Source: Clostridia bacterium (GTDB taxonomy: Bacteria; Bacillota; Clostridia; TANB77; CAG-508). Taken from it: a DNA stretch of 64,000 nucleotides. The notes below the pieces were generated by a model, which was not told the DNA's origin, did no database searches, and saw only the letters and a program-made list of their open reading frames with translations. The position numbers and the translations under genes are program-made. How positions within the stretch are numbered: position 1 is the stretch's first letter; each line of letters starts with the position of its first letter. Shown here piece after piece: positions 3,541 to 57,374 of the stretch. The stretch spans positions 907-64,906 of the forward strand of contig DBGCHZ010000037.1 of the NCBI GenBank assembly GCA_048355915.1. The letters are read 5' to 3'.

Positions 3541-4085
3541 TCTATAAAGCTAATAATAATCTCAGTTAAAACTAATATACATAATTTTCAAACCTAATAT
3601 ATATTACTATATAAATAAGCTATCAACCACATATATTAATCAGTCACTCGACTACTAATACACTTTTAGCAACTATATTCATCCTAATTATAGGACTAAT
3701 AATAACCACATCAAATATAAGAATAATCTTAGCTCAAATATATTACTTATTTTTTCAACCATATAAAAATAACAAGAAATAAAATATAAAATATAGCTTA
3801 AAAACAAATAATATACTCTTATCGCCGACATATATTAATATATTTAATACACCAATATACATCTTTGCTCGAATATTAATAAACTAATAAATAATCTATT
3901 AATATTCTTTGCTCAACTATTATTAACCTTATAAGATTATTATGAACAGAATTAAAAAATATATTCAGAAAAATAAAAAAATTTAAAATTAAAATAACAA
4001 AAATAATAATTGACAATCATACTTTAAATATTAAGTGTAAAATCATTTTAATATATTTTTGTCGAAGAATGTCAAAATGTTTTTA

Positions 4086-4114
4086 TTGACAAGCTATGTA
4101 AAATATTGTAAAAT
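4086..4114 (+). promoter_or_regulatory. sigmaA-type promoter TTGACA-17-TAAAAT upstream of the VirB4-like gene
   Basis: hexamers read directly; RBS GGAGGTG at 4127-4133. Confidence 0.5.
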
Positions 4115-4138
4115 ACAAAAAATACAGGAGGTGATTAT

Positions 4139-6709
4139 ATAGCTAAAAAAAGTAAAACTATTCAAGAATGGATAGAAATAAAAAATATTTTTAATGAAGG
4201 AATTATAGAATTAGAAAATAACAAATTTATTAAAATATTAAAAATAACTCCAATTAATTATAATTTAAAATCTGATTTGGAGAAATCATCAATATTAAAT
4301 TCATATAAAATTTTTTTAAAAACTTGCAATTTTGATATTCAAATATTAATTCAAAGTAATAAAGAAGATTTAAGTCATCATATTTCAAAAATAAAAAATA
4401 ATTTAAAAAATGAGAAAAATGAAAATTTAAAAATTATATCAGAAAATTATATCGAATATATTATCAATTTAAATAAAATAAAAAAATCATCATCAAAAGA
4501 CTTTTATATAATTATATCTAATGAAAAAATAAAAAATAATGAAAATATAAATTCATATGAAATAACTAAAAATGATTTAAAAGAAAAATATTTTAAAATA
4601 AAAGAATGTCTATCAAGATGTGGAAATTTTGTTATTGAAATTAATGAAAAAGAAAAAATTGAAGAAATATTTTTTTCTTTTTTAAATACGAGAAATTATT
4701 TTAATAATATTTTTAATTATAATAAATAAAAATAATTAAATAAAAAAATTAATTATTAAAATAAATTAAATAAAATAATTAATTATTAAAACAAATAAAA
4801 TAAATTAAATAAAAAATTAATAATTAAAATAAATCAAATAAAAAATTAATAAAAATAGAGGAGGAAAAATAAAATTCTAAAAAAAATTAAAAATGAAATA
4901 AAAAATAAAATATTTAAAGGAGGCATAACAACAAAAGATAAAATTGCACCAGCATATATAAATTTAGAAAATCCAAAATATATTGAAATTGATAATATGT
5001 ATTTTGCAGGTTTAGCTATTGTAAATTATTATAGAGAACAAACAGATATCATATTAAAAACATTGATTGAAACAAATATTAATATGAATATATCAATTTT
5101 TTATGAGAAACAAGATTCATACAAAACTATAAAAGATTTAACTTATCATATTGGAAATGTAGGGGTAGAGGTAAAAGGAAGCAACGAAAATAGACAAGAT
5201 ATAGATATTGCAGCTTTTACATATAATGATGCAAAATATATTAGGAAAGAAATGCAAGTTAATAATGAAGATATGTATTTTTTATATGTATACATAATTG
5301 TATATTCAAAAGATATCCAAGAGTTAGAATATTACTTAAATAAGATTGAAGGTATTACACAAAGTAAAGGACTACAAACGAGAAGGACAAATTTTAGAGA
5401 AGAAGAATTATTTTTATCATGTTTACCTACAATGTCAAATAATAAATTAATAAAAGAAATGGCGAGAAGAAATGTTTTAACAACTGGATTATTAGCAACA
5501 TATCCGTTTATATCCTCAACAATATTCGACCAAGATGGAATTTTTATAGGAACAAATATATATAATAATTCCTTAGTATTTATAGATAGATATGACAATA
5601 AAAAATATAAAAATGCAAATATATGTATATTTGGAACAAGTGGAGCAGGAAAATCTTTTTATACAAAATTATTAATATTAAGATATAAATTATTAGGAAT
5701 AAATCAATATATCATTGATCCAGATAGAGAGTATGATAATATTTGTGAAAAATTAGAAGGAACAAATATTAAAATAGGACCAAGTTCTAGTACATATATA
5801 AATATTTTAGATATAAGGAGTGAAAGCTTAGAAGATGGAGAAAATGGATATTTAGCAACTAAAATTGGTAAATTAATAGGATTTTTTAATTTAATTTTTG
5901 GACAATTAAATGAAGAAGAAAAAGCTTTATTAGAGGAAAAATTAATAGAAACATATAATTTAAAAGGAATAAATTTTAATGATGAAAGTTTATATAAAAA
6001 AAGCGAAGAAAAAATTACAGGAAAAGAATTTAAGGAAAGTCAAGATATGCCATTATTAGAAGATTTATATAATTTATTAATTTTAGATAAAAAAACTAAA
6101 AAATTTGCAATAAAATTAATTCCATTTATAAAAGGTTCTATGAAATTTTTTAATAATTATACAAATATAGAATTAGAAAAAGATTTAATAATAGCAGATG
6201 TATATGATTTAGGAGAAGAAAATTTAAAATATGGAATGTATTTATTTATTGATATTTTTTGGGACAAAATAAAAGAAAACAGAAAAGAAAAAAAGGCAAT
6301 TTATTTAGATGAAATTTGGAGACTTATAGGAGTAACATCAAATAAAGATGTAGCAAGTTTTATTTATAAAATATTTAAAACCATAAGAAAATATGGAGGA
6401 AGTAGTGTAGCCATAACACAAGATATATCAGATATTTTTAGCTTAGATAATGGGACATATGGAAGAAGTATATTAAATAATTCAAGTATAAAAACATTTT
6501 TTGCATTAGAAGAAGAAAATATAAAAATATTATCAGAATATACAAATTTAACAGAAAAGGAAAAAGTAGAAATTAAATCATTAAAAAGGGGAGAATGTCT
6601 AATGTTTGTAGGAGAAGATCATATTCTTACAAAAATAGAATGTTCAGATTTTGAAAGGCAAATAGTAGAAGGGAATAAAAATAATGAAAAAAATTCTTAC
6701 AGCAATTAA
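4139..6709 (+). pseudogene. VirB4/TrsE/TcpF-family conjugation ATPase, interrupted
   Basis: N-terminal domain (4139-4729; no in-frame ATG, ATA at 4139 after the RBS) resembles the Tn916 Orf16-type N-terminus. The same frame reopens at 4880 and continues KDKIAPAYINLENPKYIEIDN... through Walker A GTSGAGKS, IIDPDREY, Walker B IYLDEIW, ITQDISDIF to 6709. The two parts are separated by a 150-bp in-frame segment carrying 7 TAA codons and one TAG. Confidence 0.6.
4730..4879. repeat. degenerate ~30-bp tandem AT-only repeat (AAATAAATTAAATAAAATAATTAATTATTAAAA-like, about 4 units) inside the VirB4 reading frame
   Basis: seen directly; length is exactly 150 bp (50 codons), in frame with both gene parts. 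Confidence 0.7.
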
Positions 6710-8087
6710 TAATCCTAATTTAAATAAAAAATTATCAGAACAAGAATTTATAGAAATTCCATATAAAGATATACAATATAAAGAAGCAATTTTAGAAATA
6801 TTAAATGAAGATAATTATTTTGATATTATTATAATAAATGAAAAATTACCCGGAGAAATTAATTTTATAGAATTAATTAAAAAAATAAAAAAAATTAATA
6901 AAAAAATAAAAATAATAATTATTTTAGAAAAAGAAGATGAAATAAAAGAAAATGAATTAAAAAAAATAAATATTAATAAAATTTATTATAATAATAAAAT
7001 TACATTAGAATATTTAATAAAAATAATAAAAGAAAAAGAAATTAATAAAGAAGAAGAATTAAAAAAAGAAATTAATGAATTAAAACAAATTATAAAAATG
7101 AATGAATTTAAAAATGATAAAAAAAATAATAAAAAATTCCCCATACAAAATAAGATTTTTTATCACAAAGAAATATTTAAGAAGCCATTATCGATTATTA
7201 ACAAGATAAAATTAAAACAAAATAAAATTAACATAAAAGAAAATGACGAAGGGACTATGGTTAATATAGTTGGAGATAAAGAAAGTGGTAAGAGTGTTAT
7301 AACCCTAATGTTAGCCAATATACTTTCAGACAAAAATTATAGTATTTTAATAATAAATATTAATTCAGAAGAATTAGATTTTTATTCATATATTTTAAAT
7401 TATAAAAAAGACAATACAAAAAAGTTTTATGTCAAAAAGAAAAATTTTATATCAAAAACCAAATCCATAAATTTCCAAATAAATAAAAATATAATTAAAA
7501 AAATTTTAAAAATAAAAAAAGAAAAATTAAAAAATAAAATATATAAATTTAAAAATTTTTATAACATTGAAAAAAATATAAATAATATATTAAAAGATTA
7601 TAATAAAAATATTAAAATTTTAAATATTAATAAATTAAATATAAATTATTTTAAAATAAAATATTTGAATAAAATAATAAAATATTTTAAAAATAATTTT
7701 AATTATATTTTTTTAGAAATAAATTATAATGAAAAAATAAAAAATAAAAAACTAAAAAAAATATTAATTAGAAATTATTTAAAAAATATAGATAAAAATT
7801 TAATTATTTTAGAACCAAATAAAATAGGAATATTAAAGACAGAGAAAATTATAAATAAATTAAATATAATTGAAAAAGAAAAAATAAATATAAATATAAT
7901 TATAAATAAAAATAGTAAAAGTTCTATAAATAAAGAAATAATAAATAAATATTTTTTTAATTATAAAATATTAACCGTAATTAATAATAACACGGTATTT
8001 GAAAAAGTAATAAATAATAAAAAAATATTAAAAAATAATTTAGTATATTTAAAATTAAAAGAGGCAGTAAGAAAAATAGTTGAATAA
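6684..8087 (+). CDS. extremely K/I/N-rich protein: receiver-like N-terminus plus degenerate P-loop (GDKESGKS), possibly ParA/MinD/TadZ-like fold
   Basis: 467-codon ORF in a 25% GC genome; overlaps the VirB4 stop by 26 nt (translational coupling); RBS GAAGGGAA. Confidence 0.45.
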   Translation: MKKILTAINNPNLNKKLSEQEFIEIPYKDIQYKEAILEILNEDNYFDIIIINEKLPGEINFIELIKKIKKINKKIKIIIILEKEDEIKENELKKININKIYYNNKITLEYLIKIIKEKEINKEEELKKEINELKQIIKMNEFKNDKKNNKKFPIQNKIFYHKEIFKKPLSIINKIKLKQNKINIKENDEGTMVNIVGDKESGKSVITLMLANILSDKNYSILIININSEELDFYSYILNYKKDNTKKFYVKKKNFISKTKSINFQINKNIIKKILKIKKEKLKNKIYKFKNFYNIEKNINNILKDYNKNIKILNINKLNINYFKIKYLNKIIKYFKNNFNYIFLEINYNEKIKNKKLKKILIRNYLKNIDKNLIILEPNKIGILKTEKIINKLNIIEKEKININIIINKNSKSSINKEIINKYFFNYKILTVINNNTVFEKVINNKKILKNNLVYLKLKEAVRKIVE

Positions 8088-8169
8088 AAAATTAATAAAT
8101 TAAATAAATATAAGTTAAATAAAAAATAAAATAAATAAATAAAATTAAAATAAAAAATGAGAAATTTAT

Positions 8170-8889
8170 ATGGAATTAATTAACAATATTGAAAGAGAAA
8201 AAAATAATAATTTATTAAATAATAATGAACAAAATAATTTTTTAGAAACAACATTAGGAAAAGTAATAAATACTGGGATAGATATAGGCATAAGGGCAAT
8301 TTTTCCTGATTTTATTGAAGATGAAATAATTAATTTAAAAGATAATATTTTTGATTATGGAATTGTTGATGGAATAAAAGAAACTATTGATGAGGCAATA
8401 AATTTAGGAAAAAGTGCAGTAGGAATATTTACAGGAAATTTTGAAAATGTTGAGCAAATGCAAAATGCCATAGAAAAAGGAGGTCTAATAGATGGAATAT
8501 CAGAGTTATTATCTTTTGCAGTAGATAAAGCACAAAAGTCTGGAATAATAAATTATTCAATTGGAAATACGATAGAAAAAGGAAAAAATATTATATTAAA
8601 TAATATAGAAAGTAATATAGAAAAAACTTTTTCAGACCAAATTATTTCTGTTGATAAAATGAATAAATATATTAATAATTGGAAAGAAAGTTTTAAAAAT
8701 AAGGATTTTGAAAAAATGGAAAGAGACTATAAAAAAATTCAAAAAGAAAGACAGAACTTAGTTCCATTAGAAAAAACATTGCAAGATACAAAAGCAGTAG
8801 AAATATTACATAATTTAATTAAAAATAATGGGAATAATTTTAACTTAACACAAGAAGAAATGGAATTAGCAAATAAATTAAACAAATAA
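8170..8889 (+). CDS. hypothetical protein
   Basis: 239-aa ORF with ordinary composition; no family recognised. Confidence 0.4.
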   Translation: MELINNIEREKNNNLLNNNEQNNFLETTLGKVINTGIDIGIRAIFPDFIEDEIINLKDNIFDYGIVDGIKETIDEAINLGKSAVGIFTGNFENVEQMQNAIEKGGLIDGISELLSFAVDKAQKSGIINYSIGNTIEKGKNIILNNIESNIEKTFSDQIISVDKMNKYINNWKESFKNKDFEKMERDYKKIQKERQNLVPLEKTLQDTKAVEILHNLIKNNGNNFNLTQEEMELANKLNK

Positions 8890-8929
8890 AATTTATGAAT
8901 TAATAATCCATAAATTCTATAATATATTT

Positions 8930-9283
8930 TTATTTATTATTATATTTTTTTAAATAAGTAAAAGAACAATGAATTAATTCATAAATATATTCAACAGTTT
9001 CAGAAGGACAATTATTTAATATAGTATTTATTTTATTAATTGTATCGGTATTTTCTAATTTACCAAAAAGTATATAATCAGAAGAACTACCAGTATAAGA
9101 AACAATTTTACTTAAAGTTTTTAAACTTAAAGATCTTTCACCTCTTTCAATTTGCCCTAAAAATACTTCAGATATATCTATTATTTCAGAGAATTTTTCT
9201 CTACTCATATTAAATTGTTCTCTTAATTTTCTAATTCTTTCTCCTACTAATACATTATCAATTTGTTTTATATAATCCTGCAT
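8930..9283 (-). CDS. XRE-family helix-turn-helix transcriptional regulator
   Basis: HTH LRKLREQFNMSREKFSEIIDISEVFLGQIERGERSLSLKTLSKI; start chosen at the ATG preceded by AAAGGAA. Confidence 0.7.
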   Translation of the reverse strand: MQDYIKQIDNVLVGERIRKLREQFNMSREKFSEIIDISEVFLGQIERGERSLSLKTLSKIVSYTGSSSDYILFGKLENTDTINKINTILNNCPSETVEYIYELIHCSFTYLKKYNNK

Positions 9284-9462
9284 AAAAATAATTCCTTTCA
9301 TAACAGTATAAATATTTAAGTATTTATATATTATATAATAAATTTTCAACAATACTAATATGCTAAAATCAAATATAAAAAGAATACTAAAAGCAAAAGT
9401 ATGAAAGTATAAAAAAATGAAAAAAGACGAAAATATAAGTAAACAAATTAAAGGAGGAAAAA

Positions 9463-9792
9463 ATGGAAAGATTTGAAATAGAAATAAAAGATTTATTAGA
9501 TAATTTTTATGATTCAGAATATGAAAATTTAGATAAAATAATTATTAAATGTGAAAAAACTAAAAAAATGGAGAAAATAAAAAGTTCAAAAGAAAAAGTA
9601 TGGAAAGAATTTGAAGAAAAAATTAAAATAGATAATGAGATATTAAGTAATACAAAAGAAAAAATAGAGAATAACGAAAACAAAAGATTATCAATTTATA
9701 ATAAAATAATGTATAAACAAGGTTTTATTGATGGAATTAATTTATTAATAAATTGTATATCAAAAAATAATGAAAAGTCCCACAAATACTAA
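9463..9792 (+). CDS. hypothetical coiled-coil protein
   Basis: strong RBS AAAGGAGGA; divergent from the XRE gene. Confidence 0.4.
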   Translation: MERFEIEIKDLLDNFYDSEYENLDKIIIKCEKTKKMEKIKSSKEKVWKEFEEKIKIDNEILSNTKEKIENNENKRLSIYNKIMYKQGFIDGINLLINCISKNNEKSHKY

Positions 9793-9820
9793 GTTTCCCT
9801 AAACTTTTCCCCTAAAATAC

Positions 9821-9849
9821 TTGCAAAATTTTATTTGTTATAATATAAT
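9821..9849 (+). promoter_or_regulatory. gyrA promoter TTGCAA-17-TATAAT
   Basis: hexamers read directly, 40 bp upstream of gyrA. Confidence 0.55.
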
Positions 9850-9885
9850 ACAAATGTAGAAATAACAATGGAAAGAGGGAGAATA

Positions 9886-34318: not shown

Positions 34319-35269
34319 ATGTTAAAAATATATAATACAGACATAGAAACAAATAGAATAGAAGAAATAAAAGAATTTAAAAAAGGAAGTTGGATAAGTT
34401 TAATAAACCCCTCAGAGGTAGAAATAAGAAAAGTATGTGAAAATGTAAATATTCAAGAAGACTTTATAAGAGATGCTTTAGATTACGAAGAAAAAGCCAG
34501 AATTGATGCAGAAGAAGATGATGGAACAATATTATTTGTAATAGATGTACCAATAATAGAAAAAAATGAAGAAAATGATGTATATACAACAATGCCATTA
34601 GGAATGATAGTAGTAAGAGATGACTTTTTTATAACAGTATCATTAAAGAAAAATAAAGTAATAGAAGATTTTGAAAAAAGAAAAATTAAAAATTTTCAAA
34701 CTTATAAAAAAACAAGATTCATATTCCAAATATTTTATTTAAACTCATCATATTTTTTAAATTACCTAAAACAAATAAATAAGGAAACAGAAATAGCAGA
34801 ATATATATTAAAAAATTCTATGAAAAACAAAGAATTATTAAAATTATTGAGTTTAGAAAAAGGTTTAGTATATTTTACAACATCACTAAAATCAAATGAA
34901 ATTGTCATGGAAAAGACAATGAGAGGAAAAATAATAAAATTATATGATGATGATGAAGATATATTAGAAGATGCTATCATAGAAAACCGACAAGCAATAG
35001 AAATGTCGCAAATATATAGCAATATTTTAAATGGAACAATGGACGCATATGCTTCAATTATTTCAAATAACTTAAATGGAGTAATGAAATTTTTAACATC
35101 AATAACAATAGTATTAGCAATACCAACAATGATATCAAGCTTTTGGGGAATGAATGTAAACTTACCATTTCAAAATAGTCCAATAGGATTTCCAATTATG
35201 ATAGTAATTGCAATAATAACAACATTGGCAGTAACTTGGTGGTTAAAAAGAAGAGATATGCTTAATTAG
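34319..35269 (+). CDS. corA: CorA-family magnesium transporter
   Basis: C-terminal two TM helices with the GMN motif (FWGMNVNLPF); ATG at 34319 after GGAGGGG. Confidence 0.85.
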   Translation: MLKIYNTDIETNRIEEIKEFKKGSWISLINPSEVEIRKVCENVNIQEDFIRDALDYEEKARIDAEEDDGTILFVIDVPIIEKNEENDVYTTMPLGMIVVRDDFFITVSLKKNKVIEDFEKRKIKNFQTYKKTRFIFQIFYLNSSYFLNYLKQINKETEIAEYILKNSMKNKELLKLLSLEKGLVYFTTSLKSNEIVMEKTMRGKIIKLYDDDEDILEDAIIENRQAIEMSQIYSNILNGTMDAYASIISNNLNGVMKFLTSITIVLAIPTMISSFWGMNVNLPFQNSPIGFPIMIVIAIITTLAVTWWLKRRDMLN

Positions 35270-35289
35270 AATTTAATAAAGAAAATAAG

Positions 35290-35531
35290 AAAAAGGACTG
35301 TCCTAAAATATATAAAATATTTCTGGTAATAGTCCTTTTTAATTATATTCCATAGATAAGAACTTGTAAGCTCTACAAATGAACCTTTTTCTATCGCTGA
35401 AAATTTATTTTTATAAATTTTCACGGGAACATTATTCATTTGAAGAGCTTAACAATTTCTAATCTATTCCATATAATATAAAAAGGACTATTACCAGAAA
35501 TATTTTATATATTTTAGGACAGTCCTTTTTG
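35290..35531. repeat. composite palindromic element, copy A: 43-bp perfectly complementary arms (35294-35336 / 35484-35526) around a ~147-bp core
   Basis: left arm AGGACTGTCCTAAAATATATAAAATATTTCTGGTAATAGTCCT is the exact reverse complement of the right arm; the core is shared with copy B. Confidence 0.85.
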
Positions 35532-35537
35532 AAAAAA

Positions 35538-36839
35538 CTAATAATAAAGTATTTCAGGAATTCGATTTAATTCAGAAGTTAGAAAATTAAACATATTATC
35601 ACCGATAGAAGTATCAATTCCCTGCTTATACAAAGAAACAGTTTTATTAATATCTAATAATTTCATCTTTTTATCGCTTAAAGCATTATTTTCATACATA
35701 TAAATAGGAACATAATTAACTTTATCAATGCTAATATTGCCATTAGTATGTTTTGTAATAGTTAAAGTCAAAATTATTGATGTTCTTGTATCTTTTAAAT
35801 TTTGGTCACTTATGAAATTACCTAAAGAATAAATTATAAAACCATCTTTTGAAGAACCATCTTCCAATGTTATAGTTTTTTTCTCTATTTTTTGTAATAC
35901 ATGAGGATGAGAGCCTAAAATTATATCAACACCATTTTTAAATAAGAAATCAGAAAGTTCAGTTTGAGTAGTATTGACATTAGCAGTATATTCATCACCC
36001 CAATTCATATAAGCAATTATAATATCAGCATTTTGAGATTTTGCTTTATCAATTTGTTTTTTTATTAAATCTTTATTAGAGGTATTAATACAAAATTCTT
36101 TATCAGAAGGAATAGCTAAATTTGTTGTATTACAAGTATAATTAACAAAAGCTAATTTAATGCCTTTAACATATTTTATTAAAACATTATCTTGTTCTTC
36201 CTGAGTTTTATTAGTACCAACATGAGAGATATCAGCTTTATCAAGTACATCTAAAGTTCTAGATAAACCATCAAATCCATAATCTAAAGAATGGCTGTTG
36301 GCAGTAGCTATAACATCTAATCCTAATTTTTTCAAATTATAAGCCAAATTATCAGGAGTATTAAAACGAGGATAATTACTATAACCTTTACTCTCACCAG
36401 CAAAAGAAGTTTCTAAATTAGCAATAGATATATTAGAATTTTGAATATAATAACTAATATCATCAAAAACATAAGAAAAATTATAAGAATCGGTAGAAGA
36501 ATTATAAGCATCTAAATACTGTGTATTATGGCACATAATATCTCCTAAAGCTGTTAAAGTAAATGTAGTATCAGAAAGTTCTTTATTAGAATTGGTATCA
36601 GAAGATGTGTTTTCATAATTATTTGAAATAGAGTTATTAATTTCTTGATTTGCCATATCTACTATTTTTTTATAATTTATCCAATTTTTTGTTATATTAA
36701 AAATAACTACAACTAAAAAAACAACAGATAAGATAATTACTAATTTAACTAAACCCGTTGTCAATTTTTTTGTATCATCAGTATTTATAAAGTTCCTTCT
36801 ATTTCTATTAGACCTATTATTTCTTCTCAAATAAATCAC
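35538..36839 (-). CDS. capA: CapA/PgsA-family metallophosphatase-like poly-gamma-glutamate biosynthesis protein
   Basis: N-terminal TM helix; CapA-type motifs (LTALGDIMCH, GSHPH, GNFISDQ). Confidence 0.7.
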   Translation of the reverse strand: MIYLRRNNRSNRNRRNFINTDDTKKLTTGLVKLVIILSVVFLVVVIFNITKNWINYKKIVDMANQEINNSISNNYENTSSDTNSNKELSDTTFTLTALGDIMCHNTQYLDAYNSSTDSYNFSYVFDDISYYIQNSNISIANLETSFAGESKGYSNYPRFNTPDNLAYNLKKLGLDVIATANSHSLDYGFDGLSRTLDVLDKADISHVGTNKTQEEQDNVLIKYVKGIKLAFVNYTCNTTNLAIPSDKEFCINTSNKDLIKKQIDKAKSQNADIIIAYMNWGDEYTANVNTTQTELSDFLFKNGVDIILGSHPHVLQKIEKKTITLEDGSSKDGFIIYSLGNFISDQNLKDTRTSIILTLTITKHTNGNISIDKVNYVPIYMYENNALSDKKMKLLDINKTVSLYKQGIDTSIGDNMFNFLTSELNRIPEILYY

Positions 36840-36943
36840 CCCATTAATTTAATATAAAGTATCATAAAAAATAAAAAAATTCAACCAAATGAATAATTTT
36901 TCAAAAAAATAGAATAATAATAAAAAATAAAAGGAGGAAAAAT

Positions 36944-37132
36944 ATGAAAATAATAGATAAAATAGCATTAGTTCTAATAATTATAGGAGCCATAAATTGG
37001 GGATTAATAGGATTATTTAACTTTAATCTTGTAGCAACAATATTTGGAGATATGACTATAATTTCAAGAATAATTTATGGATTAGTCGGATTATCAGGAC
37101 TATGGGGAATTAAATTATTATTTGAAGATTAG
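36944..37132 (+). CDS. DUF378 family small membrane protein
   Basis: GAINWGLIGLF...GLVGLSGLW signature; RBS AAGGAGGA. Confidence 0.7.
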   Translation: MKIIDKIALVLIIIGAINWGLIGLFNFNLVATIFGDMTIISRIIYGLVGLSGLWGIKLLFED

Positions 37133-37379
37133 TAAAATAGTATAGATTATATAAAATATATAATGTATTAAAATAAAAAATTACCTTATTACATTAAAGT
37201 CTAATTAGATTAGAGTAAAGTGTAAGAAAGGTATTTTTTATTGAGACATTTTCTAAAATGAATTATTAAGACAATATCACAAATGAATTAGAATATGCTA
37301 TACCAAAATAATGTTATACTTGAAAAAAAAGCCTAAATAGTATATAATTACTAACGATAACAATATAGGAGGAGATAAA

Positions 37380-38963
37380 ATGCTAAGTGCAAACGGAGTA
37401 ACCGTAAGATTTGGAAAAAGAGTATTATTTGAAGATGTAAATATAAAATTCGGAAAAGGAAATTGTTATGGAATAATAGGAGCAAATGGAGCAGGAAAAT
37501 CAACATTTTTAAAAGTATTATCAGGTGAACTAGAACCAAGCAAAGGAGATGTAAGTTTAGAAAAAGGAGAAAGACTATCAATACTAAAACAAGACCACTT
37601 TGCTTTTGAAGAATACACCGTAATGGACACAGTATTAATGGGAAATAAAGAGTTATATGACATAATGAAAGCAAAAGATGAAATATATGCAAAACCAGAC
37701 TTTTCAGAAGAAGATGGAATGAAAGCAGCAAAACTAGAAGAAAGATTTGCAGAACTTGATGGATGGAATGCAGAATCAGATGCTGCGATGTTATTAAATG
37801 ATTTAGGAATAGTACCAGAAAATCACTATAAATATATGAAAGAAATAGAAGCAAGAGAAAAGGTAAAAGTATTACTAGCACAAAGTTTATTTGGAAATCC
37901 AGATGTTTTACTATTAGATGAGCCTACAAACGACTTAGATATGAAAAGCATAAACTGGTTACAAGAATTTTTAATAGACTTTGAAAACACAGTAATAGTA
38001 GTATCACATGACAGATATTTCTTAAACAAAGTTTGTACACATATAGCAGATGTAGACTTTGGAAAAATAAAAGTATATCCAGGAAACTATGATTTTTGGT
38101 ATGAATCAAGTCAATTAGCATTAAAACAAGCAAGAGAACAAAACAAAAAGAAAGAAGAAAAAATAAAAGAACTACAAGACTTTATTGCAAGATTTAGTGC
38201 CAACGCTTCAAAATCAAAACAAGCAACATCTAGAAAGAAAACACTAGAAAAAATTGAATTAGAAGAAATAAAACCATCAAATAGAAAATATCCATATGTA
38301 GACTTTAAACCAGACAGAGAACCAGGAAGAGAAATATTGCAAGTTAAAAATATTAGTAAAACAGTAGAAGGAGTAAAAGTTTTAGATAATGTATCTTTTA
38401 CAGTAAAAGAAGGAAACAAAATAGCATTTCTAGCAGATAATGAATTAGCAAAAACAGTATTATTCCAAATAATAGAGGGAGAATTAGAACCAGACGAAGG
38501 AGAACTAATCTGGGGAACAACAATAACAAAATCATATTTTCCGAAAGATAATAACTATTTATTTGAAACAGATGAAAACATAACAGAATGGTTAAGAAAA
38601 TACTCAAAAGATCCAGACGAAACATATGTAAGAAGTTTCTTAGGAAGAATGTTATTCTCAGGAGATGAAGCACTAAAACAAGTAAAAGTATTATCAGGAG
38701 GAGAAAAAGTAAGATGTGTACTATCAAAAATGATGTTATCAGGAGCAAATTTCTTAATATTTGATGAACCAACAAACCACTTAGACATGGAAAGTATAAC
38801 ATCTGTAAACGAAGGAATGAAGAAATTTATAGGAAACATCTTATTCACATCACATGACCACGAATTAACACAAACAGTAGCAAACAGAATAATAGAAATA
38901 AAAGAAGACGGAAAAATAATAGACAAAGAATGTACATATAATGAATATTTAGGAATTGAATAA
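37380..38963 (+). CDS. ABC-F family ATPase (EttA/YkpA-like, two NBDs with about an 80-aa linker)
   Basis: two Walker A sites (GANGAGKST, second-NBD equivalent), two LSGGE signatures, no TM domain. Confidence 0.85.
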   Translation: MLSANGVTVRFGKRVLFEDVNIKFGKGNCYGIIGANGAGKSTFLKVLSGELEPSKGDVSLEKGERLSILKQDHFAFEEYTVMDTVLMGNKELYDIMKAKDEIYAKPDFSEEDGMKAAKLEERFAELDGWNAESDAAMLLNDLGIVPENHYKYMKEIEAREKVKVLLAQSLFGNPDVLLLDEPTNDLDMKSINWLQEFLIDFENTVIVVSHDRYFLNKVCTHIADVDFGKIKVYPGNYDFWYESSQLALKQAREQNKKKEEKIKELQDFIARFSANASKSKQATSRKKTLEKIELEEIKPSNRKYPYVDFKPDREPGREILQVKNISKTVEGVKVLDNVSFTVKEGNKIAFLADNELAKTVLFQIIEGELEPDEGELIWGTTITKSYFPKDNNYLFETDENITEWLRKYSKDPDETYVRSFLGRMLFSGDEALKQVKVLSGGEKVRCVLSKMMLSGANFLIFDEPTNHLDMESITSVNEGMKKFIGNILFTSHDHELTQTVANRIIEIKEDGKIIDKECTYNEYLGIE

Positions 38964-38977
38964 TTTAGTGATTTTGG

Positions 38978-39890
38978 TGATTTTGGGGTCGGAGACAAAA
39001 ATCATTTATATTAAAGACAAACTTTAAATAAAAATTAAATTTAAACATAAAAATCACAATAAAAATACAAAAAGGACATAAAAAAATGATAAAAAGAGGA
39101 AAAAAGAAAGGTAGTGAACGTCATTTCAAGACAAGTACGAGAAAATCTAGAATCCTCTTTTTTTCATGTAATGGTACAAGGAATAGGAAAAGAATATATT
39201 TTTTTAAAAGAACAATACATAAAAATGTATTTAAGACTATTAAATGAAAAGAGAAAAGAATTAAGAATAAAAATAATTGCATATTGCATAATGAACAACC
39301 ATGCACATCTGTTAATTAAAGTTCAAAATATAAAAGAACTATCAAAATTTATGCAAAAAGTTAATAGATGTTATGCACAATACTACAATTTTATGGAAAA
39401 TAGGGTAGGATATGTTTTTAGAGATAGATATAAATGTCAAATAATTAAAAATCAAAAACATTTAATTCAATGTATAAAATACATACATCAAAATCCCGTA
39501 AAAGCTGGAATGGTAAAAAAGGGACAAGAATATAAATTTTCATCATATAATTTTTATCAAAGAAATGTAAATAAATTAAATAAAGTTTTTTCAAATGAAG
39601 AATTAACATATATATTAAAATCAAACAATCCATATGGGAATTTTATAGATGTCGATAATAATTCAGAAGAAATAATAAATAATTTAATAGAAGAATTTTT
39701 AATAAAAGAAAATGTAAAAATATTTGAAATTTTTGAAAAAGATGATATACTAAAAAAGCTAATAAGATATTTAAAATTTGAAAACGGAATAAAATATACA
39801 GAAATAATGAAAAAATTAGATATCACAAAAGGTAAAATGGAAAGATTGAAAATCAAATAAAGATGATTTTTGTCTCCGACCCCAAAATCA
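38978..39890. mobile_element. RAYT / IS200-IS605-like Y1 transposase element bounded by perfect 28-bp inverted repeats
   Basis: TGATTTTGGGGTCGGAGACAAAAATCAT at 38978-39005 and its exact reverse complement at 39863-39890; tandem GTGATTTTG duplication at the left edge. Confidence 0.7.
39114..39860 (+). CDS. Y1/HUH tyrosine transposase (Transposase_17 / REP-associated tyrosine transposase-like)
   Basis: FHVMVQGIGKEYIF, HuH motif CIMNNHAHLLI, GYVFRDRYK, YIHQNPVKAGMV; GTG start. Confidence 0.75.
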   Translation: MNVISRQVRENLESSFFHVMVQGIGKEYIFLKEQYIKMYLRLLNEKRKELRIKIIAYCIMNNHAHLLIKVQNIKELSKFMQKVNRCYAQYYNFMENRVGYVFRDRYKCQIIKNQKHLIQCIKYIHQNPVKAGMVKKGQEYKFSSYNFYQRNVNKLNKVFSNEELTYILKSNNPYGNFIDVDNNSEEIINNLIEEFLIKENVKIFEIFEKDDILKKLIRYLKFENGIKYTEIMKKLDITKGKMERLKIK

Positions 39891-39910
39891 TGGAAAAGAG
39901 AGGATAAAAA

Positions 39911-42094
39911 ATGGATAAGATAATATCAACAATAGCACAAGAATTAGGTGTTAAAAATTCACAAGTTGAAAATACAATTAAATTAATTGATGAGGGAAAC
40001 ACTATTCCCTTTATAGCGAGATATAGAAAAGAGGTAACAGGAGGATTAAGTGACGAAGTATTAAGAAACTTAGGTGAAAGATTAAGTTATCTAAGAAACT
40101 TAGAACAAAGGAAAGAAGATGTTATTCATTCTATTGATGAACAAGGAAAGTTGACAGATGAAATATTACAAGCTGTTGCAATTAGTAAAACTTTAGCAGA
40201 AGTAGAAGATATATATAGACCATATAAACAAAAAAAGAAAACAAGAGCAACGGTTGCAAAAGCAAAAGGCTTAGAACCTTTGGCAGAAATAATACTTATG
40301 CAAGAAGAAAAAACACCAATTGAAGAAATTGCAAAACAATATGTAAATATAGATAACTTATCAGAAGAAGATAAAAAGAATAAGGACAAAGCTGTTGCAA
40401 CAGTAGAAGACGCAATTCAGGGTGCATTAGATATAATTGCAGAAAATATATCAGATAATGCAAAATATAGAAAAGAAATAAAAAGACTTTTATTTAGAGA
40501 AGGTCTAATAATTACAAAAGCAAGTAATGAAGATGAAAAATCAAATTATGAGATGTATTATGATTATAGTGAGCCTTTAAAATATATACCAAGTCACAGA
40601 ATATTAGCAATAAATAGAGGAGAAAAAGAAACCTTTATAAAAGTAAAAATAGAAAAGCCAGAAGAAAAAATTCTTCAATATATAGAAAGAGACATTTTAA
40701 AAGGAGAAACACAATTTACAAGTATATTAAAAGATACAATATTAGATGCATTTAAAAGACTAATAGAGCCATCAATAGATAGAGAAATTCGTTCAGATTT
40801 AACTGAAAAAGCAGAAGATAAAGCTATAAAAGTATTTGGACAAAATTCTAAACAACTATTATTAGGAGCTCCAATAAAAGGTAAAACAGTAATGGGATTT
40901 GACCCAGCATATAGAACAGGGTGTAAAATTGCAGTAATAGATGAAACAGGAAAATTATTAGACTATACAACAGTATATCCAACAGAACCACAAAATGATG
41001 TTGAAAATGCAAAAAAAGAACTATTAAAATTAATAGAAAAAGATAAAATAGATATGATAGCAATAGGAAATGGAACTGCATCAAGAGAATCAGAAATGTT
41101 TGTTGCAGAAATGATAAAAGAAGCATCAAGACCAGTTCATTATGTAATTGTAAGTGAAGCAGGAGCATCAGTATATTCGGCATCAAAACTTGCAACAGAA
41201 GAATATCCAGATATAAATGTATCAATTAGAGGAGCAATATCAATAGCAAGAAGATTGCAAGACCCATTAGCAGAACTAGTAAAGATTGACCCAAAAGCAA
41301 TAGGAGTAGGGCAATATCAACATGATGTAAATCAAAAGAAACTAGCAGAAAGTTTGACAGGAGTTGTAGAAGATAGTGTTAATAAAGTTGGGGTTGATGT
41401 AAATACTGCAACACCATCACTACTTTCATATGTATCAGGAATAAACAATACAATAGCTAAAAATATAGTAAAATATAGAGATGAAAATGGAAAACTAAAA
41501 AATAGAAAGCAATTACTAAAAGTGCCTAAGCTAGGAAAAGTAGCTTTTGAACAATGTGCAGGATTTTTACGTATATTAGATGGAGATAATCCATTAGAAA
41601 TAACAGCAGTACACCCAGAAAGTTATGAAGCAACAGAAAATTTATTAGAAAGTATAGGATTTAATAAAGAAGATATACGCGACAAAGAAAAATTAGGACA
41701 GATAATAAAAAAACTAAGCACAATTGATGTTATTGAAATGTCAAAAGAATTAGGAATAGGGGAGATGACACTTACAGATATTATAAGTGAATTATCAAAA
41801 CCAGGAAGAGACCCAAGAGAAGATATGCCAAAACCAATTTTAAGAAGTGATGTTTTAAAATTAGAAGATTTAAAAGAAGGAATGATATTAACAGGAACAG
41901 TAAGAAATGTAATAGATTTTGGTGCATTTGTTGATATAGGAGTAAAACACGATGGACTTGTACATATATCAGAAATGAGTGATAAATTTATAAAAAATCC
42001 ATCAGAGGTGGTTTCAGTTGGAGATATTGTAAAAGTAAAAGTAATAAAAATTGATAAGGAAAGACAAAAAGTTGGATTATCAATGAAATGTTAA
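39911..42094 (+). CDS. tex: transcription accessory protein Tex
   Basis: HTH, YqgF, HhH and C-terminal S1 domains (GTVRNVIDFGAFVDIG). Confidence 0.9.
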   Translation: MDKIISTIAQELGVKNSQVENTIKLIDEGNTIPFIARYRKEVTGGLSDEVLRNLGERLSYLRNLEQRKEDVIHSIDEQGKLTDEILQAVAISKTLAEVEDIYRPYKQKKKTRATVAKAKGLEPLAEIILMQEEKTPIEEIAKQYVNIDNLSEEDKKNKDKAVATVEDAIQGALDIIAENISDNAKYRKEIKRLLFREGLIITKASNEDEKSNYEMYYDYSEPLKYIPSHRILAINRGEKETFIKVKIEKPEEKILQYIERDILKGETQFTSILKDTILDAFKRLIEPSIDREIRSDLTEKAEDKAIKVFGQNSKQLLLGAPIKGKTVMGFDPAYRTGCKIAVIDETGKLLDYTTVYPTEPQNDVENAKKELLKLIEKDKIDMIAIGNGTASRESEMFVAEMIKEASRPVHYVIVSEAGASVYSASKLATEEYPDINVSIRGAISIARRLQDPLAELVKIDPKAIGVGQYQHDVNQKKLAESLTGVVEDSVNKVGVDVNTATPSLLSYVSGINNTIAKNIVKYRDENGKLKNRKQLLKVPKLGKVAFEQCAGFLRILDGDNPLEITAVHPESYEATENLLESIGFNKEDIRDKEKLGQIIKKLSTIDVIEMSKELGIGEMTLTDIISELSKPGRDPREDMPKPILRSDVLKLEDLKEGMILTGTVRNVIDFGAFVDIGVKHDGLVHISEMSDKFIKNPSEVVSVGDIVKVKVIKIDKERQKVGLSMKC

Positions 42095-42099
42095 AATAG

Positions 42100-42338
42100 T
42101 TTAGGACTATCCTAGAATATAGAAATATTTTGGGGTCTAGTCCTTTTTAATTATATTCCATAGATAAGAACTTGTAAGCTCTACAAATGAACCTTTTTCG
42201 ATTGTCAAAATTTTATAGAAATAAAATTTTGCAAGAACATTATTCATTTGAAGAGCTTAACAATTTCTAATCTATTCCATATAATATAAAAAGGACTAGA
42301 CCCCAAAATATTTCTATATTCTAGGATAGTCCTTTTAT
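42100..42338. repeat. composite palindromic element, copy B: 42-bp perfectly complementary arms (42103-42144 / 42292-42333) with the same core as copy A
   Basis: arms differ from copy A at several positions but remain exact reverse complements of each other; arms contain TTTTGGGGTC. Confidence 0.85.
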
Positions 42339-42342
42339 AAAA

Positions 42343-56102: not shown

Positions 56103-56576
56103 TTTAAACCTCCAATTTTTAATAATATTGTCTAAGAAAAAATATTAATAAAGTATATTTTTGTATATATATTAGGTAAAATATTTTATTAGAAATATTA
56201 ATATAAATTTTCTTAACTGTTATTATAGTATATAATTATACTTTTTATTTTTCAAGTATTTTACTATTTTTTCAAAATTAACATTTTTTATTCAAATTGT
56301 ATTAAGGGAATTTCATATATTTTTAATTTTTCTTGATTTTTATTGACTTACAGTATTTTTTTTGCTACAATTCTTTAATAAATCATATATTTATATATGT
56401 TTATTTTCGTTTATTGAACTAGATTTCTCCTATAATAGTAATCTAGTTCTTTTTTTGTATGTGAAAAATAAATACATATAGATTAAAAAAATATTGGTAT
56501 GAATTTGCACATACCAATAAAAATATGATAGAGTTTAGATATATATTTAAAATTTTATTACAAATTCATGTTAAAA

Positions 56577-57182
56577 CTAAAAATTATATTCAAAATTACT
56601 AAATGGCCATATTCTAGCAAGTACTACACCTTCTATTTTTTCTAATGGAATACAACCAAAATTTCTACAATCTTTACTTTCAGGTCTATTATCGCCCATA
56701 AGAAATAAAGTATTTTCAGGCACTACTAAGTCTGTAAATCCAGCTCCAAGTAAATCTGTTACGATTCCATTTTGTAAATAGTTTTCTTCAAGTTCATTAT
56801 TATTTATATATACTTTACCGTCCTTTATTTGAATATGTTCTCCTGGAAGAGCTATAACTCTTTTTATATAACTTTCTTTTCCAAATTCTAAACCATAATA
56901 CATAAGTTTTTTAAATAAATTTGTTGGCTCATTTTCGTATTTTGCAATTGGATTATTTAAGTTTATTTCTGATTCTTTGTACATTTTTTTACTAGGAGCT
57001 TCAAATGTTACAATATCACCTCGTGAGGGGATTTTATGAGAAATACGCATTGTTCTATTTAGAATTAACTTTTCACCTTCTTTTAATGTAGGAAACATTG
57101 ATTTCATTCTTACTTCAGTAGGTGTAGCAATAAAAAATCTAAATAATAAAGCTAAAATTATAGCAATAACTATACAATACAC
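56577..57182 (-). CDS. lepB: signal peptidase I (S26)
   Basis: TM helix, SMFPTL catalytic Ser box, GDNR box. The frame remains open upstream (..KILFKEILEW) with no ATG, so the true start is uncertain. Confidence 0.8.
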   Translation of the reverse strand: MYCIVIAIILALLFRFFIATPTEVRMKSMFPTLKEGEKLILNRTMRISHKIPSRGDIVTFEAPSKKMYKESEINLNNPIAKYENEPTNLFKKLMYYGLEFGKESYIKRVIALPGEHIQIKDGKVYINNNELEENYLQNGIVTDLLGAGFTDLVVPENTLFLMGDNRPESKDCRNFGCIPLEKIEGVVLARIWPFSNFEYNF

Positions 57183-57374
57183 CCATTCTAAAATTTCTTT
57201 AAATAATATTTTATTTTTTTCATTTTCATTCTCCCAAATTATAGTTTAAATATACATTTTTTTCCTATTGATATTATATAACTATTTATTATTAATATCA
57301 ATACAGCAAATAGAAAAAATTATATATTGACTTTCATTTTAACATAAAATATAATAAAAAAAGGAGGTTCGATA

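Follow-up and report, generated by a model that had tools for sequence, protein, structure and literature searches.

Between an ABC-F ATPase gene and tex, in a 64-kb stretch of DNA from a Clostridia bacterium (contig DBGCHZ010000037.1, positions 907 to 64,906; hereafter the window, meaning the whole 64,000-nt stretch analyzed), lies a gene for a 248-aa Y1 (HUH) endonuclease that is flanked by short inverted repeats and had been picked out in a first-pass annotation made from the sequence letters alone. We consider it likely that this unit is a 'REPtron/TIRtron' (REP, repetitive extragenic palindromic sequence; TIR, terminal inverted repeat), that is, a single-copy, vertically inherited and domesticated Y1 endonuclease gene of the class described as Group 1 of the REP-associated tyrosine transposases (RAYTs), as TnpA-Y1 subclass 2.1 or as TIRYT, bracketed by inverted copies of a cognate 29-nt stem-loop. 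The actual dispersed partners of the gene are 29-nt hairpins, which occur as single copies and as inverted doublets. Loci and contigs of relatives that were compared with the window are labeled L001-L015, L046, L069 and so on.

The sequence features that the first-pass annotation had described at the locus were all confirmed, namely the 248-aa open reading frame (ORF) with its motifs at 39114-39860 on the plus strand, the perfect 28-nt inverted repeats (TGATTTTGGGGTCGGAGACAAAAATCAT at 38978-39005, matched at 39863-39890 by its exact reverse complement), their spacing from the neighboring genes, and the tandem duplication of the repeat tip (GTGATTTTG-GTGATTTTG at 38968-38985). The left repeat begins at the 15th base past the ABC-F stop codon, with 14 nt separating it from the end of that codon (38963), and tex starts at 39911, 20 nt past the right repeat. 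The inverted repeat stretches to 35 nt at 94% complementarity, and the whole unit from repeat to repeat measures 913 bp. A covariance model of the hairpin, R1, run unfiltered over the whole 64 kb, identified just the two flank copies at ~46 bits each, and with up to two mismatches allowed the GC-rich core GGGGTCGGAGAC was likewise matched in the window at the two flanks only. The features of the locus are as follows.

37380-38963, plus strand: ABC-F ATPase gene, the conserved upstream neighbor (ORF list; Pfam ABC_tran/ABC_tran_Xtn on orthologues).
38968-38976, plus strand: 9-nt 'echo' GTGATTTTG, repeating in tandem the left hairpin's outer arm (sequence).
38977-39005, minus strand: left hairpin (REP/TIR copy), minus-strand reading ATGATTTTTGTCTCCGACCCCAAAATCAC (R1, 46.1 bits, E 7e-7).
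39006-39113, plus strand: AT-rich leader from the left hairpin to the Y1 start codon (sequence).
39114-39860, plus strand: Y1 (HUH) endonuclease gene, GTG start, 248 aa (ORF list; Pfam; NCBIfam; AlphaFold [AF2] model).
39863-39891, plus strand: right hairpin (REP/TIR copy) ATGATTTTTGTCTCCGACCCCAAAATCAT (R1, 45.8 bits).
39911-42094, plus strand: tex gene, the conserved downstream neighbor (ORF list; Pfam Tex domains on orthologues).
42103-42333, no strand assigned: palindromic element B, probably outside the system (only ATTTTGGGGTC in common with the hairpin).

In each flank, an A/T-rich stem of 8-9 bp closes a 13-nt loop, T-N-N-CTCCG(A/T)CCCC, which on the opposite strand gives GGGG(A/T)CGGAG; the window flanks carry GGGGTCGG and those of relatives GGGGACGG. 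The plus strand of the left hairpin has the GGGGTCGGAG loop, and its predicted fold comprises a 7-bp stem and a 13-nt loop. Inverted palindromic repeats bracket the gene in the window, L001-L011, L069, L088, and L100, which is the arrangement known for RAYT genes and bears out the first-pass annotation on this point. In all syntenic relatives the ABC-F stop codon immediately precedes the left hairpin. Between the 29-nt right hairpin and the tex start codon there are 19 nt, and the likely tex ribosome-binding site follows the hairpin by a few nucleotides; the hairpin's position relative to tex is unchanged in L001-L004, L008, L011, L069, and L088.

The stems exist in lineage-specific variants (ATGATTTT/AAAATCAT, ATGCTTTT/AAAAGCAT, GTGTTTTT/AAAAACAC, and AGCTGTTTTT/AAAAACAGCT), and in every lineage the hairpins flanking the gene match that lineage's own variant, with compensatory changes in the stem. 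Covariation was computed on 50 distinct hairpin copies: stem positions were paired in 91.8% of cells, vs. 34-52% with the partner slid, changes on both sides were present in five of the nine stem pairs, and there were 65 double-change cells, vs. 20 in shuffles, with none of 500 shuffles reaching the covariation score.

The 248-aa protein carries the motifs NNHAHLL, GYVFRDRYK, and YIHQNPVKAG and matches Pfam Y1_Tnp at E 3e-10. Its best NCBIfam model is NF047646 REP_Tyr_transpos, at 74.9 bits, which is just under the cutoff of 80 and fits a divergent subgroup, whereas the IS200 model scored 16 bits (cutoff 55). Residues 1-150 form a catalytic core of the RAYT/TIRYT type, with H63-x-H65 (H63-A-H65) and Y123. 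In an alignment of 30 homologues with 47-94% identity, H63, H65, Y123 (within Y123-IHQ-NP) and NPVKA are invariant, as are the GYVFRDR block and a Y-x-(Y/F)-SS-Y tail. The sole notable sequence match in the PDB is E. coli TnpA-REP (4ER8), and the same entry, a RAYT with bound REP hairpin, is the nearest fold to the AF2 model (pLDDT 85; E 7e-7, TM 0.70), followed in the ranking by the transposases of IS608, ISDra2, and IS200, with 2A6M also among the fold matches. By these sequence and fold comparisons we assign the Y1 protein to the RAYT-type enzymes and not to IS200 TnpA, in agreement with the first-pass annotation.

Beyond the core, residues ~172-248 make up a conserved five-helix C-terminal domain of ~75 aa for which sequence matches were weak: HTH_24 was matched at E 0.05 by the window protein and at 8e-4 by one homologue, and a PDB profile search gave ribosomal protein S25 at E 0.04. 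A Pfam search gave no match to Bac_DnaA_C, HTH_23, or HTH_28 in this domain. The Foldseek result for a separate AF2 model of the domain was not significant, with several helix-turn-helix (HTH) proteins (LsrR, sigma region 4, DeoR) among its top matches. There are thus weak hints from these models that the domain may resemble an HTH.

To place the protein among known RAYTs and TIRYTs we used phmmer against the sequences of Additional file 5 of PMC3733652. Long TIRYTs scored 55-100 bits (gbm_2474 99.8, dau_2153 82, sml_1152 73, pca_3049 67), vs. 17-32 bits for classical RAYTs and short acidobacterial TIRYTs (eco b228 19.6, pfs_3939 31.5). The TIRYT profile match spans only positions 1-150, the catalytic core. 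On these scores the protein fits RAYT Group 1/TnpA-Y1 subclass 2.1/TIRYT, nearer to the long TIRYTs than to the classical RAYTs. The label dau_2153 we take to be that of the clostridial Desulforudis audaxviator, and its 82 bits is one of two reasons to regard as overstated the remark in the first-pass annotation that a REP/RAYT-like relationship would be unusual for a low-GC Firmicute. The other is that Group 1 RAYTs have been noted in Clostridia (PMC5581495). The same paper notes ~12 occurrences of flanking 16-mers for Group 1.

Inheritance of the gene was examined through its context. The order ABC-F, Y1 gene, tex is present in L001-L004, L008, and L011-L015, and alignment to the window places it in L069 and L088 as well; L005 and L006 have one additional gene ahead of tex; in all relatives with context, Y1 homologues with protein identities from 85% down to 48% lie between the ABC-F gene and tex. 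Amino acid identity to the relatives is 90-99.8% for ABC-F and 83-98% for Tex. Synonymous divergence (dS) from the window was similar for the Y1 gene and its two neighbors, at 0.35 vs. 0.28 and 0.25 in L001, and at 0.93 vs. 0.96 and 1.09 in L008. The ratio of non-synonymous to synonymous divergence (omega) was 0.17-0.40 for the Y1 gene and 0.01-0.14 for the neighbors, and the non-synonymous rate of the Y1 gene was 3-20 times that of the neighbors. Between the window and L001, for example, the Y1 protein is 85% identical, ABC-F 99.6%, and Tex 97.5%, with similar dS for all three. A dS like that of the neighbors together with an omega of 0.17-0.40 indicates vertical inheritance under purifying selection, with faster evolution than housekeeping genes. 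There is one copy of the Y1 gene in the window and one per locus examined, and no tnpB at the locus. Among 2.9 million viral contigs the hairpin pattern had seven matches and the protein one partial relative, and phage or plasmid cargo was rejected on this basis.

Some relatives have further genes at the locus. In L008 (5379-6000), L009 (251-697), and L069 (~5400-6000) the hairpin pair also encloses a gene for a dCMP/cytidine deaminase (148 aa), placed after the left hairpin and before the Y1 gene. L005 has a DUF975 gene in the interval from the right hairpin to tex.

The hairpin population outside the locus was surveyed by one scan of 185,579 species-representative genomes with the pattern TTTTNNCTCCGNCCCCAAAA, and all counts from it are lower bounds. 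The pattern was present in at least 118 eight-kb stretches among the matches listed, from 72 assemblies, ~62 of which are metagenome-assembled genomes (MAGs) of 25-33% GC assigned to uncultured Clostridia or Clostridium sp., from the guts of humans, mice, chickens, rabbits, sheep, and goats. Among the listed stretches only three (L069, L088, and L100) hold the Y1 gene, and therefore more than 110 carry the hairpin elsewhere. Uniqueness of the flanking repeat to this locus, which the first-pass annotation had named as refuting its reading, is not borne out: relatives carry the hairpin at many other intergenic sites, and 169 of the 204 tabulated matches among those listed fall outside ORFs of at least 100 aa. 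The largest number of copies in one MAG was at least 11, and CAJMJN01 had the hairpin in at least seven eight-kb stretches; the window's exact variant, TGTCTCCGACCCC, is present in at least four to five copies away from the gene in the genomes CAUWFY01 and USFW01. Copies within a genome are near-identical and stems differ from genome to genome, which implies copying within lineages.

Copies also occur in pairs. Among the matches listed, adjacent pairs were oriented '- +' in 43 cases, '+ -' in none, and '+ +' in six, with a modal spacing of 80-81 nt, counts that may include orthologous sites of several species. The usual doublet is therefore inverted with the GGGG-loop copy first, the same orientation that the two hairpins have around the Y1 gene. 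An orthologous doublet with nearly the same spacer was found in two species-level MAGs (L064, 4908-4988; L102, 6695-6775), beside homologues of window positions 56602-57202; there is no hairpin at the corresponding place in the window (56300-56640). The doublets at this site in L064 and L102 point to long persistence.

The pattern was also matched outside the Clostridia. In L046, a Spirochaetales MAG of 48% GC, the loop motif TTTTGGGGACGGAGGAAAA lies at 1636-1655, 70 nt upstream of a 169-aa Y1 gene (1726-2232) whose product is 31% identical and is without the C-terminal domain. This suggests that it is the catalytic core and not the C-terminal domain that reads the loop. High-GC MAGs of other phyla (L094 at 6776, L099 at 6322, L112 at 6629, L053 at 1283) have the form stem-NN-CTCCG(A/T)CCCC-stem, e.g., AGCTTTTT-AG-CTCCGACCCC-AAAAAGCT. 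The eight-kb stretches of these four had no Y1 gene, L046 being the only one with such a gene among the high-GC matches listed. Rather than being fortuitous, these high-GC matches may represent copies from related repeat families.

Two observations bear on whether the hairpins are subject to events at the DNA level. The first is a strand bias. Among single copies located between co-directional genes, 34 had the GGGG loop on the gene-sense strand and nine had the CCCC loop there (two-sided binomial p ~2.5e-4 by normal approximation, with some orthologous sites perhaps multiply counted). In Firmicutes most genes are co-oriented with replication. Assuming such co-orientation, the bias is compatible with what would be expected, by analogy, of an IS608-type mechanism acting on the lagging-strand template.

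The second concerns the outer edge of the left hairpin. The tip duplication in the window is a family trait: a 7-mer from the copy's own arm was repeated within 28 nt beyond the CCCCAAAA arm in 16 of 166 copies, vs. four of 166 on the mirrored side and 0.8% of random windows. At the left edge of the locus itself the echo is 9 nt long in the window, 14 nt long in L002 and L004 (TGATTTTGGGGTCG, 5846-5873), and lacking in L001 and L003, despite L001-L004 encoding an identical Y1 protein. The outer edge of the left hairpin is thus an indel hot spot, and its polymorphism suggests ongoing DNA-level events. The echo may have originated by slippage at the hairpin or from aborted nick-and-join events.

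Taken by analogy with characterized enzymes, the protein would read the conserved GGGG(A/T)CGGAG loop and bind the hairpin as folded in single-stranded DNA, with the lagging-strand template as the probable site, and would nick and rejoin the DNA beside the hairpin through Y123 and the HUH metal site. Hairpins or hairpin pairs would in this manner be copied to new intergenic sites, with the enzyme's own gene never moved.

The system belongs to the known TIRYT/Group 1/subclass 2.1 class and is not a new type. TIRYT genes have been described as Y1 genes flanked by inverted repeats that share GGGGWSAS, with moderately abundant repeat families that are often dimers (PMC3733652). Most TIRYTs fall in TnpA-Y1 subclass 2.1, which consists of long proteins with a C-terminal HTH, and 291 of 292 Bertels Group 1 RAYTs map to the same subclass; no REP-like sequences were found adjoining subclass 2.1 genes (PMC6006769). 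An association with REPINs has been reported only for RAYT Groups 2 and 3 (Bertels and Rainey, bioRxiv 10.1101/2021.07.10.451892).

The protein shares with TIRYTs, Group 1 RAYTs (Bertels et al., 2017) and subclass 2.1 (Quentin et al., 2018) its length (>210 aa) and the presence of an extra C-terminal domain that is helical and perhaps HTH-like. With the TIRYTs (Di Nocera et al., 2013) it also has in common the N-terminal motifs MPR-AR, HV-QRGN, AYC-M-NH-HLL, G-xW/F-xR-YKS, Y-xx-NPV-AG-V, and WSS/YSS, a single-copy gene, inverted flanks containing GGGG[AT][CG], moderate repeat families that are often dimeric, and occurrence in Clostridia. It differs from them in that the motif here is GGGG[AT]CGGAG and lies in the loop of a short covarying stem-loop, making for a REP-like 'TIR', and in that its C-terminal domain is of another kind and does not align with the published TIRYT ones. 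The dispersed hairpins set it apart from subclass 2.1 and Group 1 as reported, where neither REP-like neighbors nor REPINs were described.

The classical REP/RAYT systems (E. coli TnpA-REP/YafM with REPs and bacterial interspersed mosaic elements, and Pseudomonas Group 3 with REPINs) resemble it in having a domesticated, single-copy, vertically inherited Y1 gene with inverted palindromic flanks, extragenic dispersal often in inverted pairs, and lineage-specific variants that match the gene, and they include the closest solved structure, 4ER8. They are unlike it in sequence (17-32 bits only), in their GTAG/CGTC foot tag, which is absent here where a conserved loop is present instead, in having GC-rich stems where those here are A/T-rich, in being seen in hundreds of copies rather than tens, and in the constancy of their doublet spacers, which are variable here; their hosts are Proteobacteria, whereas the host here is a Firmicute of 25-30% GC. 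With the TnpA of IS200/IS605 elements (IS608, ISDra2) the protein shares the HUH/Y1 fold, the catalytic residues and, as presumed by analogy, subterminal hairpin recognition and a lagging-strand-template mechanism. The locus is unlike those elements in not being multicopy, in being immobile as a unit, in having no tnpB, and in having inverted rather than same-strand ends. What is new is modest: the TIRs are covarying stem-loops with a loop motif, dispersed singly and as inverted doublets, with a strand bias and an active-looking edge.

Several points weigh against the interpretation of the locus as a domesticated endonuclease gene with a cognate population of mobilized hairpins. We infer binding, cleavage, and mobilization from what is known of E. 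coli TnpA-REP and IS608 TnpA. In the window, the next-best R1 score after the two flanks was 20 bits and was without the loop, such that no copies are seen there beyond the flanks. The loop served as the search pattern, and hence its invariance in the collection is partly by construction, although genes retrieved through their protein, and not through the pattern, have the loop at their flanks too. The flank motif GGGG[AT]CGG fits seven of the eight positions of GGGG[AT][CG]A[CG], having G where the TIR consensus has A, and the REP_Tyr_transpos score lies below its cutoff. Copy numbers in relatives (at least 11 in the MAG with the most) are modest vs. the hundreds of classical REPs, and the pair-orientation counts have the possible redundancy already mentioned. 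Spacers differ among the doublets of one genome, unlike those of classical REPINs, and the doublet is therefore not established as a copying unit. Lastly, no clear pair of filled and empty hairpin sites was found among the loci compared, sites common to loci being either orthologous doublets (L064, L102) or unrelated sequence.

Of the alternative explanations, the one that survives best is that the hairpins act mainly on transcripts, as stabilizers of mRNA 3'-ends, as terminators, or as controls of translation through a CCUCC-containing loop near ribosome-binding sites, with the Y1 protein being a non-transposing regulator that binds hairpins and the spread of the hairpins being ancient or due to other processes. 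The positions of the copies speak for it: 60 of 151 copies have a gene end no more than 70 nt away on the GGGG strand, 40 of 151 have a gene start at most 70 nt downstream on the CCCC strand, and copies are found directly past stop codons or shortly ahead of ribosome-binding sites. In L008, the doublet between tex and the response-regulator gene has its right copy inside a terminator-like stem of an A-run and a T-run, the L064/L102 doublets have persisted long, and E. coli REPs are known to have such secondary roles (PMC5581495). However, purifying selection has kept the HUH and tyrosine residues invariant, although a protein that only binds could do without them. The near-identity of copies within genomes and the differing stems across genomes point to copying within lineages, and the echo is polymorphic among strains with an identical Y1 protein, consistent with DNA-level events that are ongoing. 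In addition, no intrinsic terminators were predicted at the flanks, promoter-like sites were at the level of shuffles, and there was no Rfam match at E up to 1 within window positions 35000-43000. We therefore consider it unlikely as the main explanation. It does not exclude a domesticated endonuclease acting on the same hairpins, and hairpins at gene ends or before ribosome-binding sites may additionally act on transcripts.

A second alternative, put forward in the first-pass annotation, is that the dispersed partners of the gene are two larger palindromes in the window, A (35290-35530) and B (42103-42333). These are ~235-nt palindromes with perfect arms of 52 and 47 nt, located in spacers between convergent genes, and are identical over two 62-nt inner blocks; their outer arms and apex differ, with each difference mirrored on the partner arm, which suggests concerted arm evolution or a long structured transcript. 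A short a-b-a' form is present at the A site in L001-L003. The proposed link was the 10-mer TTTTGGGGTC, which has exactly four sites in the window (38981, 39878, 42128, and 42299). That it is improbable was upheld, since none of 100 shuffles got to four, but the expectation of 0.03 given in the first-pass annotation was somewhat low (0.19 from the shuffles), and the four sites count as no more than two independent events, each pair being an inverted repeat. In favor of the proposal, each arm of B contains the 10-mer, in the variant that belongs to the window and with the left/right orientation of a doublet, and B's spacer, that between tex and the response-regulator gene, holds a true hairpin doublet of the same orientation in L008 and L056.

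Against it, A is without the motif, and the 10-mer in B falls in a segment that differs from A, where A has TTTCTGGTAA, with A/B homology on both sides. B resembles the hairpin over a total of 11 nt and has no R1 match, and the A/B family was seen in the window lineage only, whereas the Y1 gene and the hairpins are present in many genomes. A and B were rejected as the dispersed partners on these grounds, and the REP/RAYT relation to them that had been proposed is unsupported; we regard it as very unlikely, with a modest chance that the 11-mer of B is the remnant of a hairpin.

Last, we find it hardly credible that the unit is an autonomous insertion sequence of the IS200/IS605 type, transposed in one piece and delimited by the inverted repeats. 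The Y1_Tnp domain is present and, to judge by its residues, catalytically intact, and the compact unit fits tightly between its two neighboring genes, which leave it 14-20 nt of room, but such an element is contradicted by the conserved synteny (at least six protein lineages, of 48-94% identity, have the gene in that position), the vertical dS like that of the neighbors, the single copy per window or locus, the lack of tnpB, the 16 bits of the IS200 model, the other genes inside or beside the repeat pair (the deaminase in L008 and L069, DUF975 in L005), the fact that the ends of IS200/IS605 elements are not inverted repeats, and the near-absence from viral contigs.

Two further observations concern the window more generally. 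Positions 4001-10000 are extremely AT-rich (15-20% GC), with many low-complexity A/T repeats. A large gene resembling those for nonribosomal peptide synthetases (Condensation, AMP-binding, PP-binding, and NAD_binding_4 domains) is placed by synteny from 45582 onward, downstream of a histidine kinase gene, as it is in the relatives (L001, from 12559 onward).

Returning to the interpretation of the locus as a domesticated Y1 endonuclease gene with cognate hairpins, a broader statement can be ventured only tentatively, namely that Group 1/subclass 2.1 RAYTs maintain a true population of hairpin repeats across a large clade of uncultured gut Clostridia with low GC, with recognition by loop rather than by foot tag and stems that co-evolve with the gene, and that the strand bias and polymorphic echo reflect present-day activity on single-stranded DNA. 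The puzzle of RAYTs and REPs is that the transposase is single-copy and conserved in a housekeeping-like manner, yet its only known activity is on small repeats. Detailed work has nearly all been on Proteobacteria and on Groups 2 and 3. The findings here would mean that the largest and least understood group (Group 1/subclass 2.1/TIRYT) also has a cognate structured dispersed repeat, in very AT-rich gut Clostridia that are known mainly from metagenomes. For annotation, they account for a class of GC-rich 29-mers and advise caution in naming the gene an active IS200-family transposase. If true, they would provide a Firmicute model for asking why RAYTs are kept, with tractable handles in the conserved loop, the covarying stem, the fixed ABC-F/tex locus, the measurable strand bias, and the edge indel hot spot.

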